Assembly: GCA_011065065.1 (NCBI GenBank)
Contig: JAAKFL010000001.1
Location: 1-60,948 of the forward strand
Direction of reading: 5' to 3'
DNA from: Chlamydiota bacterium
Lineage (GTDB): Bacteria; Chlamydiota; Chlamydiia; Chlamydiales; SLFE01
DNA: 60,948 nt
Shown: positions 35,410 to 44,793 of the stretch, piece after piece
Layout of the letters: each line of letters begins with the position of its first letter
How positions within the stretch are numbered: position 1 is the first letter of the stretch
Program-made: the position numbers and the translations under genes
Notes under the pieces: model-generated
Told to the model about the DNA's origin: nothing
Databases searched by the model: none
What the model saw: the letters and a program-made list of their open reading frames with translations, nothing else

Positions 35410-35410
35410 G

Positions 35411-35452
35411 AATTTTGCCGCAGATACACGCAGATGGCCGCAGATTTTCAAG
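35411..35452 (+). repeat. GCAGAT-type repeat module (three 10-nt units)
   Basis: aattttgccgcagatacacgcagatggccgcagattttcaag lies directly after the uvrB stop. Confidence 0.7.
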
Positions 35453-35482
35453 AGAAAAATCGGGATATAGCTTTGGAATTTT

Positions 35483-36250
35483 GTGAAAATGAGTATGAAT
35501 CTACATTACCTATATCATTTATTTAGTTTACAGTCTGCTGATACGGAATCGACATCCCAGGATCCTACTTATTGTCTTCCAGTTGAAATTTTGTATGAGA
35601 TTTCCTCTTATTTCACCTCAAAAGACGTTCCTTCTCTCCGTTTAGTTTGTCGGCGATGGAATCAGATTGTCATTCAATCTTGGCCTAAACATATAATTTT
35701 AGCTCATGAGATTATTCATCAGATACAAAGTCATCTAAATTTGAGGGAGGGGTTTTTCGGAGGGATGGCATTAAAAATATTAACCGTTCGATTCCAAGAC
35801 CCAAAACCTATTGTTCAGATGATTGACTGCAATGAGATGCTCATTAAACACTCTGAAAGAGGATATGTTTCTGATGATGGTGGAGTGACATGGGCTCTAA
35901 ATCATATAAGCGTACATAAATTTACTAGTTTACAGTTCTTCAGGAAATATCAACTTGCCCCTGACTATGGTGGTCCGGATTTCATTATAGGACCTTTTGT
36001 TAAACGCAGCGTCCCAATTTTCTTTTTTAGAAATCGCGTACATGTGTACCAAATCCGTAAAGAGGTATCAATTTTTAGATTAAATTTCTTGATTCCGACT
36101 AAAGAATATCGGAACCAAAAGCTGACAATGAAAATAGTTGAATATGTTATTAACAATTACTCTCGTTTACTTTTTCCAGGAGCTGAGATTTCTAAAAAGC
36201 GTTTTGAAAAATTCTTAAGCGATTATGTGACAAAATGGGGTACTGATTGA
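35483..36250 (+). CDS. F-box domain protein
   Basis: LPVEILYEISSYFTSKDVPSLRLVCRRWNQIV fits the F-box consensus. The start is uncertain (GTG 35483, or ATG at 35489 or 35495). Confidence 0.8.
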   Translation: MKMSMNLHYLYHLFSLQSADTESTSQDPTYCLPVEILYEISSYFTSKDVPSLRLVCRRWNQIVIQSWPKHIILAHEIIHQIQSHLNLREGFFGGMALKILTVRFQDPKPIVQMIDCNEMLIKHSERGYVSDDGGVTWALNHISVHKFTSLQFFRKYQLAPDYGGPDFIIGPFVKRSVPIFFFRNRVHVYQIRKEVSIFRLNFLIPTKEYRNQKLTMKIVEYVINNYSRLLFPGAEISKKRFEKFLSDYVTKWGTD

Positions 36251-36253
36251 GAA

Positions 36254-42753: not shown

Positions 42754-42756
42754 TCT

Positions 42757-44544
42757 ATGCCTATGACATTCGATGGTCATTTGTCCCAAGTGACCGATTT
42801 ATTATCTGACAACCAACCCGTAGCAGGTCTTCCATCGGGACAATGGAAAAAAAACGGATGGATTCATGCAAAATTACAAAATTTATTTAATGTTGATGAC
42901 ACACGAATCTTCAGTTTGGGGAAAGCCTTTTGTAATGCACTTGATGATTTAGAAAAATCTTATCGCTTAGCGGAAGATCCCGAGTGGTTTTCATTAGGTG
43001 AAATCATTGTCTTAAAACTTAAAATCCAAGACTGCCTATCTGCCAGAAAGGTTGAGTTTTTGGTTCTGCAAAGGTTGATTGGCTTAAAGCGTCGGGAGAA
43101 TTTTTCTGCAGCAAAAATTCTTACCACTCTAGAGACTTATACTTTTCAAGAGGGAGCCATTAGATGGAAAAGGTCGCAAAAACATTTTTATATCACAAAA
43201 TGGTTGGATGATGATCAAGAGAGGGTTGATGATGTGTGTGAGCGTTATCCCGATTTTGTTCGTCTGTTATGTCGAGATCCCAACTTGTTTTCTCAGTTTT
43301 TAGATTGGACGATTCGCGATCATATGAGTGTGAGCAGTTTTGTTGAGTTCCCAAAAACACAAGAACTTTTGAGAAAAATTGAGTTAGCCCCTTCTGCTAG
43401 TATTGCCCGAAAACCCAAATTGAAGATCAAGACAAAACATGGGGTTAAATATCTCACTTTTCCACTCTATGCCAATCATCATGGAACCATAAGATCAAAA
43501 TCTGTGAGGTTATGGGAAAAGGATAGAGAATACGAATTAGCTGGAGGATATCGCACCACTTTACGTGAGATTTATCATGAGCTTTCGCGTAAAAACAAAC
43601 ATTGGGTGAACTATGTTATTACAGAAAACGGATTTGAGAATTGGAATGTACGCGAGTGGGGGACTCTTGATTCCGATGGAAAAAGTGTCCGTTCGGCTTT
43701 ACCAAGAGATCGCTGGTTCCACAACGTCCCCATTCTCGAGCGATTGAGCCTCGAAAAAGCGCAAAACCGATACGGACAAGACTTGGATGGTACCAACTAC
43801 GGAATAGCTTTGCGGGCAACTCGTCGTCGACAAGACCTCGATGTCATTGGATCTCATTCTTTTTTTGAGCTGTGCATTCCAGATAAAAAGGGAGGATATT
43901 TCACGATTTGTCCGGGTAAACTCACTTTATATCTTCCTCAATCTGTTTGGGATCTTGTCAAAATCTTTGGAAATACAGTTGAGGGAGTCATCGTGAGTCA
44001 CGATTCCAACGTTGTGTATCCATGGAGACAACAAACACGTTATTCTGTGACTGTTGAGACCAATGAGTTTCTTTGGTTTGCAGAGAAAATGAGGGTGTCT
44101 ATTGAAAATGGTCGCACTGGAAATTTAGTCTTCTCGCTCCTTGCTGATAGTTGTTCTGTCTGGTCCCAAAACCTGATGAATGAACTGCTCAAGCACTTGC
44201 CAGACGATCACCCTCAAAAATTGACGGCTGAAGAAGAGTTGAATTTCTTTATCATGAAAATTAAGGAGACAGAGCCCAATGGGCCGTTAAGTTATTTGAT
44301 CGGAATCATTAAGTTTTTTCCCGAGTTTTTACAACCTATCGTCACATATATTATCTTACTCGCTTTTTATCCATTCCGAGGGAAATGGGTGTACGAAGAA
44401 GATGGGACACCACGTTGGGTTTCAGCTTATCGAAGTCAATCGTGGAATCACTTGCAGATTCATAATCCAGCGAACTTGTTTCACCAACAGATCAATGAGG
44501 GAAGATTTTTGCCGAGTGGTCTTCTTCCCGAATGGCTTCAGTAA
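42757..44544 (+). CDS. large lineage-specific protein, paralog B (conserved His367/Asp416/Cys466; C-terminal hydrophobic segment)
   Basis: 595 aa. Starts 3 nt after the stop of paralog A and carries the same conserved blocks. Confidence 0.8.
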   Translation: MPMTFDGHLSQVTDLLSDNQPVAGLPSGQWKKNGWIHAKLQNLFNVDDTRIFSLGKAFCNALDDLEKSYRLAEDPEWFSLGEIIVLKLKIQDCLSARKVEFLVLQRLIGLKRRENFSAAKILTTLETYTFQEGAIRWKRSQKHFYITKWLDDDQERVDDVCERYPDFVRLLCRDPNLFSQFLDWTIRDHMSVSSFVEFPKTQELLRKIELAPSASIARKPKLKIKTKHGVKYLTFPLYANHHGTIRSKSVRLWEKDREYELAGGYRTTLREIYHELSRKNKHWVNYVITENGFENWNVREWGTLDSDGKSVRSALPRDRWFHNVPILERLSLEKAQNRYGQDLDGTNYGIALRATRRRQDLDVIGSHSFFELCIPDKKGGYFTICPGKLTLYLPQSVWDLVKIFGNTVEGVIVSHDSNVVYPWRQQTRYSVTVETNEFLWFAEKMRVSIENGRTGNLVFSLLADSCSVWSQNLMNELLKHLPDDHPQKLTAEEELNFFIMKIKETEPNGPLSYLIGIIKFFPEFLQPIVTYIILLAFYPFRGKWVYEEDGTPRWVSAYRSQSWNHLQIHNPANLFHQQINEGRFLPSGLLPEWLQ

Positions 44545-44566
44545 TTAGTGGCCCGTGCGTTTTTTG

Positions 44567-44793
44567 GCCGCAGATGAACGCTGATGATCGCGGATGGAAT
44601 TTTAACGCAAAGATGCAAAGTCGCAAGTCACTTATTATAAACCATTTAAAAAAAACATCCTGTCCATCCTTACTATCCTTTTATCCTGTTACCCTGTGCT
44701 AAAAAAACAGGATAAAAGGATAGTAAGGATGGACAGGATGTGGTTATTTCCCGATAGGGGTCCTGAAAGGACTGGCTCGCTTTGCGTTAAAAA
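44567..44793. repeat. composite repeat: GCAGAT module + TTTTAAC-GCAAAG module + nested ATCCTG hairpin + reverse GCAAAG terminus
   Basis: The ATCCTG arms at 44656-44690 and 44706-44740 are near-perfect reverse complements. The outer pair is ttttaacgcaaag (44600) and ctttgcgttaaaa (44780). Confidence 0.75.

Follow-up and report, generated by a model that had tools for sequence, protein, structure and literature searches.

The uvrB-topA interval of an uncultured chlamydial lineage: a probable mosaic carrying a candidate thiol acyl-enzyme pair

In a 60,948-nucleotide stretch of chlamydial DNA (contig JAAKFL010000001.1; hereafter the window), seven genes lie between uvrB (33358-35409, + strand) and a topA-SWIB fusion (44794-47355, - strand). 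The question raised by this 9.4-kb interval is whether its genes form a single unit. A sequence-only reading had described them as an accessory island bounded by repeat arrays, with a shared role in host interaction. Comparison with related genomes points elsewhere: the interval is very probably a mosaic of differing histories and not one co-functional island. Its most stable part is a tandem pair of paralogous proteins, here called A and B, which are most likely, on model and motif evidence, thiol acyl-enzymes acting on lipids. We give the combined explanation (a mosaic slot plus a thiol acyl-enzyme pair) a probability of roughly 0.6.

The contig belongs to a metagenome-assembled genome (MAG) of K940_chlam_3, which Köstlbacher et al. 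(2021, PMC8242063) treat as a lineage of family rank with no cultured member; the nearest public contigs are labelled Waddliaceae or uncultured Chlamydiae. The interval contains the following features (nt, nucleotides; aa, amino acids; ORF, open reading frame; SAM, S-adenosylmethionine).

35411-35445, + strand: CGCAGAT-type tandem array found by TRF, three units of about 10 nt, between the uvrB stop codon and F-box1
35483-36250, + strand: F-box1, 255 aa; Pfam F-box-like 3e-9, F-box 3e-8; GC 0.354
36309-37322, + strand: F-box2, 337 aa; Pfam F-box-like 4.5e-12; GC 0.360
37330-37351, - strand: terminator-like hairpin and T-run just downstream of Sel1-small; GCCTTGTTCACTTGCACAAGGC then CTTTTTTT
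37391-38113, - strand: Sel1-small, 240 aa; Pfam Sel1 1.6e-14
38154-39530, - strand: Sel1-big, 458 aa, six repeats; Pfam Sel1 1.4e-48
39547-40527, - strand: class I SAM methyltransferase, 326 aa, N-terminal CxxC...CxxC; Pfam Methyltransf_23 1.9e-22
40601-40611, + strand: extended -10 promoter-like motif TTTGATATAAT upstream of A, with TATAAT at 40606-40611
40735-42753, + strand: protein A, 672 aa as longest ORF
42757-44544, + strand: protein B, 595 aa, after a gap of 3 nt
44545-44793, no strand assigned: composite repeat element between convergent B and topA

The same interval was taken from six related genomes, and all window proteins were searched against them. The related loci were located by a genome scan with A orthologs. 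The flanking genes trpS, uvrB and topA are present wherever the relatives' contigs reach (about 66-86% identity to the window). Protein A is found in all six relatives (53-76% identity) and always adjoins topA. It is always followed by B where the contigs continue; B lies directly downstream in all five loci that cover the position (41-61% identity). Homologs of both Sel1 genes are present in three of the six (L003, L005 and L008; 22-49% identity). Those of Sel1-small keep the same position (25-34% identity); Sel1-big has an ortholog at 49% identity in L005 and homologs at 26-30% in L003 and L008. In all three genomes Sel1-big sits directly divergent from A, so the methyltransferase of the window is an insertion between the two.

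No homolog of F-box1, of F-box2 or of the window's methyltransferase was found in the six related loci. L003 carries an unrelated methyltransferase on the other strand (E=0.58) together with ankyrin (Ank) and NUDIX genes; L002 is without Sel1 genes and has an extra copy of A and an ATP-binding cassette (ABC) transporter; L007 has only a 177-aa ORF at this position. Judged from these gene orders, the slot after uvrB is a turnover hotspot, and the methyltransferase-Sel1-Sel1 unit is specific to this genome. In one of the MAGs, MFD05684.bin.1.376 (L004/L013 7181-9182; L006/L014 2762-5286), uvrB and topA each fall into two ORFs, and a contig end interrupts A; the splits are probably assembly frameshifts rather than pseudogenes.

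Protein A also keeps its own upstream signal. The block TTTAAAGAAAAAATTTG(A/T)TATAAT precedes A in the window and in five relatives, whichever gene lies upstream, and the extended -10 motif occurs once in the window. Consensus scans of the window for promoters and terminators gave no enrichment over shuffles; of such signals only the terminator after Sel1-small and the -10 motif conserved across genomes were kept. Since the A-B pair is retained beside topA with a conserved promoter irrespective of its neighbours, it is probably autonomous and vertically inherited.

Three layers can be proposed from these data. The first would be the A-B pair, a stable tandem with its own promoter, fixed beside topA across the K940_chlam_3 lineage (relatives labelled Waddliaceae). 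The second would be the divergently transcribed Sel1 pair, which is semi-conserved (the window and three of six relatives). The third would be the fast-turnover slot after uvrB, filled here by two AT-rich F-box genes and the methyltransferase and elsewhere by Ank and NUDIX genes and another methyltransferase gene, by an ABC transporter, or by nearly nothing; such turnover would fit the birth-and-death evolution of eukaryote-like effector genes in environmental chlamydiae. The repeats at the edges would be copies of a genome-wide class, and the right-hand hairpin a probable bidirectional terminator.

The functional module proposed earlier would require the seven genes to be co-selected and to act jointly on host ubiquitination and trafficking. 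F-box and Sel1 are eukaryote-like domains, chlamydial F-box proteins of other families have functional type III secretion (T3S) signals (PMC4209131), and the genes adjoin one another around an AT-rich, divergent control region. Two points weigh against a mosaic: the synteny sample consists of seven genomes only, all of them MAG contigs, and Sel1 genes accompany A-B in four of the seven, which leaves room for a functional link between Sel1 and A-B. However, the F-box genes and this methyltransferase occur in none of the six related loci, in all of which A is present; the methyltransferase is inserted between Sel1-big and A; the A-B promoter is kept independently of its neighbours; other A/B members lie beside gatCAB or valS without such partners; and the window also has F-box and Ank genes outside the interval. 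A module of this kind is very unlikely.

Independent distribution of the genes in related genomes, which the sequence-only reading had itself named as grounds for giving up the module, is largely what the six relatives show. Of the two units that it proposed to compare across genomes, A-B is kept as a pair; the methyltransferase-Sel1-Sel1 unit is found in this genome only. An accessory island as a whole is contradicted by the synteny of A-B and, in part, of Sel1, and by a composition that is normal save for the two F-box genes. Block-wise presence or absence with atypical composition was not seen; the components are independently distributed, and atypical GC is confined to F-box genes. The earlier observation is mostly accurate, and its interpretation as an island and functional module is only partly supported.

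The gene content itself had been described correctly. The F-box, Sel1 and methyltransferase calls in the interval all exceed Pfam gathering thresholds: both PF12937 and PF00646 do so in the two F-box proteins after uvrB and in the ORF at 6150-7178, and the two Sel1 (PF08238) proteins score 54.2 and 162 bits against a cutoff of 30.7. The methyltransferase, reported as a Zn-ribbon protein, has CxxC...CxxC at its N-terminus, and the gaps of 16 and 40 nt in the minus-strand run from methyltransferase to Sel1-big to Sel1-small agree with those given. The 207-bp spacer between the methyltransferase and A is AT-rich as stated (GC 0.251), and the call of an enzyme-like paralogous pair was right: A and B are distant paralogs (23% identity, E=7e-27).

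The start codon of A is probably over-extended; half of its orthologs begin at a methionine equivalent to Met46 (40870), a possible start in place of 40735. A comparable N-terminal extension is, however, found in the A protein of the closest relative. Likewise, uvrB orthologs align from residue 15, which would place the start at 33400 instead of 33358, with a 4-nt overlap with the trpS stop; this start, too, is probably over-extended. No Sec signal peptide and no clear transmembrane (TM) helix was found in any of the seven island proteins, so they are presumably cytoplasmic or secreted independently of Sec (e.g. by T3S). This absence is compatible with type III secretion and is not evidence for secretion. 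The F-box and Sel1 proteins are plausible host-interaction proteins, judged by their analogy to those published for environmental chlamydiae (PMC4209131).

A third F-box gene is located in the window at 6150-7178. The three F-box proteins share the F-box motif only (17-19% identity), and F-box2 is not a close paralog of F-box1. Their genes have the lowest GC of any in the window (0.354-0.367 versus 0.426 +/- 0.028); the remaining five island genes are within about one standard deviation (SD) of the window's genes. In Parachlamydiaceae, F-box effector families evolve by birth and death, and representative members have functional T3S signals (Domman et al. 2014, PMC4209131). The pattern in the window fits this description. 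For the methyltransferase, the nearest solved structures are generic small-molecule methyltransferases, UbiG and a sugar C-methyltransferase. In the NCBIfam and PADLOC scans its sole match is the 'mad2' methyltransferase domain, which was judged generic.

The repeat arrays are indeed present at both edges of the interval, as had been reported. They are not specific to it. The left array (35411-35445) has no stable fold (z=+0.93). The right element consists, in order, of a CGCAGAT array, a ACGCAAAG array, an inverted repeat of ATCCTGT-type units and an inverse ACGCAAAG remnant; the inverted repeat is 43 nt long (44648-44690 / 44706-44748) and 93% complementary. The composite (44545-44793) forms a very stable hairpin (-105.6 kcal/mol, z=-9.8) and is a plausible bidirectional terminator. 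A 33-nt direct repeat of 79% identity links the two edges (35413-35445 / 44563-44595). The CGCAGAT module found there is also present at 5787-5810, 7192-7235, 25178-25314 and 53650-53740. More generally, modules of 7-10 nt (CGCAGAT-N3, ACGCAAAG, CACAGAG, CGCGAAGAT, ATCCTGT and CGTGATTAA) recur in about twelve other intergenic spacers of the window, as arrays of three to four copies in varying module order and usually as long inverted pairs. Modular repeats occupy the following positions.

842-860
3456-3524
5697-5828
7190-7337
11590-11690
13949-13971
16500-16560
19108-19468
25178-25314
35411-35445
44563-44793
48572-48597
53551-53775

Since these modules are almost missing from the homologous loci of the relatives, the class is specific to this genome. 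The edge arrays belong to an intergenic repeat class that is genome-wide and lineage-specific, and they are not island boundaries. The modules resemble repetitive extragenic palindromic (REP) sequences or miniature inverted-repeat transposable elements (MITEs); no matching described family could be named. The third F-box gene and its upstream region are bracketed by inverted repeats of about 130 nt (5697-5828 / 7215-7336, 90% complementary), built of ACGCAAAG and CGCAGAT modules plus a 'GGACCAACGGTCCATGCGC' core. What appears to be an 'empty' copy of this bracket lies at 53551-53775, with the arms back-to-back and no gene between them; the third F-box gene may have entered a repeat hairpin in the manner of a cassette.

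The hallmarks of a mobile or pathogenicity island (integrase or transposase, tRNA or attachment (att) target, specific flanking repeats) were not found at the interval. There is no integrase among the annotated window ORFs; the sole tRNA of the window is at 972-1047, and the Rfam scan returned one tRNA and nothing at the interval. The direct repeats were considered as att sites and ruled out, as the module is generic elsewhere in the window and almost missing from the relatives' loci. Acquisition of the whole interval in one horizontal transfer, with the direct repeats as insertion scar, can be based on that 79%-identity repeat and on a GC slightly below that of the window (0.395 versus 0.417), but is hardly credible given that the repeat module recurs at 5.8, 7.2, 25.2, 25.3 and 53.7 kb, that A-B and Sel1 genes hold the same position in relatives without these repeats, that integrase and tRNA are lacking there, that GC is within one SD of the window's genes except in the F-box genes, and that in none of the six relatives does uvrB directly abut topA with a single repeat copy.

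What, then, are A and B? An exhaustive profile search gave at least 550 representative clusters at 50% identity (339 of them at E<1e-30); the median protein length is about 600 aa. No Pfam model scores above threshold in any of 61 diverse members, and NCBIfam and PADLOC scans return nothing for A or B. Every member looked up is named only "hypothetical protein"; a word-indexed homology search with a diverse profile returned close A orthologs and no new names. In the literature searched, no LRAT/NlpC-P60-type family of about 600 aa is described in chlamydiae. By these searches the A/B family is mainly chlamydial, large and unannotated.

Four residues stand out in 165 core domains: His415 (165/165), Cys514 (163/163), Arg472 (164/164) and Asp464 (160/165, with Glu in three more). 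In A, His415 is encoded at 41977-41979 and Cys514 at 42274-42276, which places them 99 residues apart; B retains all four. The family motifs are HA(F/Y)xExAIP, YPDENxFYxxRQH and (F/Y)QxExENCAKW.

In two independent lineages, other members of the family are arranged divergently to gatCAB, with an epimerase/DUF1731 gene downstream of them, and a third locus is similar in layout.

L019 8001-9986: gatCAB-linked member
L021/L022 8001-9836: gatCAB-linked member
L015 9425-11338: ORFs of matching size and orientation to the gatCAB setting

The position beside gatCAB is possibly the ancestral single-copy locus. The gatCAB-linked copies group together in a single clade of a rough neighbour-joining tree; A and B each fall into a long-branched clade of their own, found only in the present lineage. 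Contigs of the gatCAB-linked members also carry UCH and TPR genes. Multiple copies are seen in several forms: L002 (10001-15772) has three tandem copies (A, A' and B), the distant lineage L016 (10001-13696) has an independent tandem pair beside valS and the F-ATPase operon, and protein P0118 (1057 aa) has two catalytic cores and is apparently a fused pair.

Full-length A was modelled with AlphaFold2 from a 61-sequence alignment (predicted local distance difference test, pLDDT, 91.8; predicted TM-score, pTM, 0.89). In this model a helical N-terminal domain is followed by a beta-rich middle part and an alpha/beta region at the C-terminus; His415 sits on a strand (414-423), and Cys514 is the first residue of a helix (514-532). 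The core, about residues 392-545 (41908-42369), was also modelled alone (pLDDT 85). Its best fold match by Foldseek is TseH (6v98; probability 0.91, TM-score 0.55/0.47). The order of elements in a circularly permuted NlpC/P60 domain is present: His is N-terminal to Cys, Cys is at a helix N-terminus and His is on a strand. The only recurring Pfam match is Lnb_N (PF13387), always below threshold (E=0.0068, 0.028 and 0.1); in two reported matches the alignment covers the RQH...ENCAKW segment with the Cys motif. In hhalign, the SENC motif of the family is aligned to the catalytic NCEHF of PLAAT3 (sequence verified against 4fa0/4dot). A circularly permuted NlpC/P60 (papain-like) fold is a reasonable prediction for the core, somewhat better than an even chance; the family is probably a new architectural variant of the permuted NlpC/P60 thiol enzymes.

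Several results weigh against this assignment. The Foldseek match of the core to TseH has E=0.16 and a root-mean-square deviation of 10.9 A, and the full-length model has no meaningful match in the PDB (best E=0.21). The Lnb_N crop matches reach 14.4 and 12.6 bits against a cutoff of 22.2, and the hhalign match to PLAAT3 has a probability of 5% over 19 columns only. No conserved polar residue is found at His+17, the position used by TseH and Lnb; Tyr429 (His+14) is conserved, and Asp464 and Arg472 lie away from the strand after His. Profile searches of PDB sequences with full-length and core profiles gave only noise (Serrate, syntenin), and no significant sequence or profile match to a permuted NlpC/P60 member family was found, Lnb_N and PLAAT3 being sub-threshold. 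The superfamily call is weakened because it rests on sub-threshold statistics. Two other folds were considered from the order of the residues and rejected: a clan CE (His-Asp-Cys) protease or caspase-like dyad had no Pfam match at E<=10 and nothing above noise in fold searches, and separase appeared at E=2.8 only, in the full-length fold search.

Under the favoured fold, His415 would activate Cys514 for nucleophilic attack, giving an acyl-thioester that water, or an acceptor amine or hydroxyl, would then resolve. The acyl chain would be transferred or hydrolysed on a lipid or lipidated substrate, as in Lnb/DUF4105, LRAT/PLAAT and Tox-Act1. Asp464 and Arg472 could be a third catalytic residue and a substrate binder, or could form a structural salt bridge as described for NlpC/P60. 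Members of the permuted NlpC/P60 clades (LRAT, YiiX, TseH, Tox-Act1, DUF4105) act for the most part on lipids, as acyltransferases or phospholipases (PMC12994826); the same structural cluster II includes C97 PPPDE deubiquitinases and deSUMOylases (PMC10318531). That these peptidases share the group is a further point against the lipid reading; we rate a lipid or lipidated protein as substrate at about even odds.

The strongest competitor is a peptidase function, in which A and B would be isopeptidases or peptidases (PPPDE/DeSI-like deubiquitinases or deSUMOylases, or NlpC/P60-type amidases) instead of lipid enzymes. In addition to the cluster membership just given, chlamydiae are known to secrete deubiquitinases, and CLN5, which we take to be PPPDE-like, is at rank 6 in the core-model fold search. 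However, the only recurring sequence match is an N-acyltransferase domain (Lnb_N), the nucleophile motif is like the NCEHF of LRAT/PLAAT, Pfam scans at E<=10 contain no PPPDE or Peptidase_C97 match, and no PPPDE/DeSI structure is among the 50 fold matches listed. A peptidase function is unlikely. The lipid-enzyme reading can also be extended to phylum-wide chlamydial secreted thiol acyltransferases or phospholipases that remodel lipids or lipidated proteins of the host or inclusion membrane, with an ancestral copy beside gatCAB, heteromeric tandem pairs and Sel1 proteins as adaptors or chaperones; this fuller picture is decidedly doubtful. A non-catalytic role for A and B, as structural proteins or adaptors whose His and Cys bind metal or stabilise the fold, would agree with the sub-threshold fold and family matches but is most improbable. 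One invariant His and one invariant Cys, the latter at a helix N-terminus, separated by 99 residues and joined by an invariant Arg and a near-invariant Asp in 165 domains, are the pattern of a thiol enzyme; a Zn site would need three to four ligands.

Elsewhere in the window, an ankyrin gene (27213-28709, 498 aa) is located between thyX and a conserved 275-aa minus-strand gene. In the relatives thyX is directly followed by the 275-aa gene, without the ankyrin gene; by this comparison the site is a second accessory slot of the window. ThyX itself (25430-27070, 546 aa) is of double length with two Thy1 stretches, as in the relatives (544-545 aa). On the minus strand at 14009-16305 are tandem paralogs of 382 and 378 aa (65% identical, GC 0.372). 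Both have hydrophobic, signal-peptide-like N-termini, and one of the two has a weak sub-threshold ATPgrasp_ST match; the pair is a recent duplication of a possibly secreted protein.

Taken as an island, the locus is nothing unusual: environmental chlamydiae are already documented to have variable slots with F-box, Ank or Sel1 genes. Gene adjacency in a single MAG is a poor guide to functional modules without a synteny check. What merits attention is the A/B family, which has no Pfam model, no name in the sources checked and no solved-structure match for the full-length model. Its fold is nevertheless predicted with confidence, and its conserved His, Cys, Arg and Asp suggest the chemistry of a thiol acyl-enzyme. 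Chlamydiae need to take up and remodel lipids of their hosts; if the assignment is true, LRAT/Lnb-like A/B enzymes would be concrete candidates for this remodelling.

The components of the interval can be compared with known systems. The F-box genes resemble the F-box/BTB families of Parachlamydiaceae (PMC4209131) in being lineage-specific, AT-rich, dispersed and partly tandem. They differ in belonging to another lineage (K940_chlam_3, Waddliaceae-like), in number (only three copies in 61 kb) and in sharing only the F-box motif.

The LRAT/PLAAT (HRASLS) enzymes use thioester acyl-enzyme chemistry on phospholipids. They share with A/B the permuted NlpC/P60 order, and their motif VLYKLTSENCEHFV aligns with VFQxESENCAKWV of the family. 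In contrast to A/B, they are about 160 aa long with a C-terminal TM anchor and a His-His-Cys triad; PLAAT structures are not among the 50 fold matches listed for the A core. TseH, a permuted NlpC/P60 effector of the V. cholerae type VI secretion system, has the same His...Cys arrangement as the A/B core. It is a 183-residue single domain delivered by that system, its sequence identity to the A core is 7%, and its triad uses Glu at His+17.

The only recurring Pfam match leads to Lnb/DUF4105 (PF13387), the lipoprotein N-acyltransferase of Bacteroides, with the triad His49-Asn66-Cys148. Lnb is a membrane protein of 398 aa in which a periplasmic domain is combined with five TM helices, whereas A/B proteins are about 600 aa long, have no signal peptide or clear TM segment, and carry an N-terminal helical and beta region of about 390 residues without matches. 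The Lnb Asn at His+17 has no counterpart in A/B, and the match is below the Pfam gathering threshold. In both families His precedes Cys by 99 residues (His49-Cys148 in Lnb) and the nucleophile lies in an 'NC' motif after a beta-strand; TseH, the nearest solved structure of the A/B core, is also the top structural neighbour of the Lnb DUF4105 domain.

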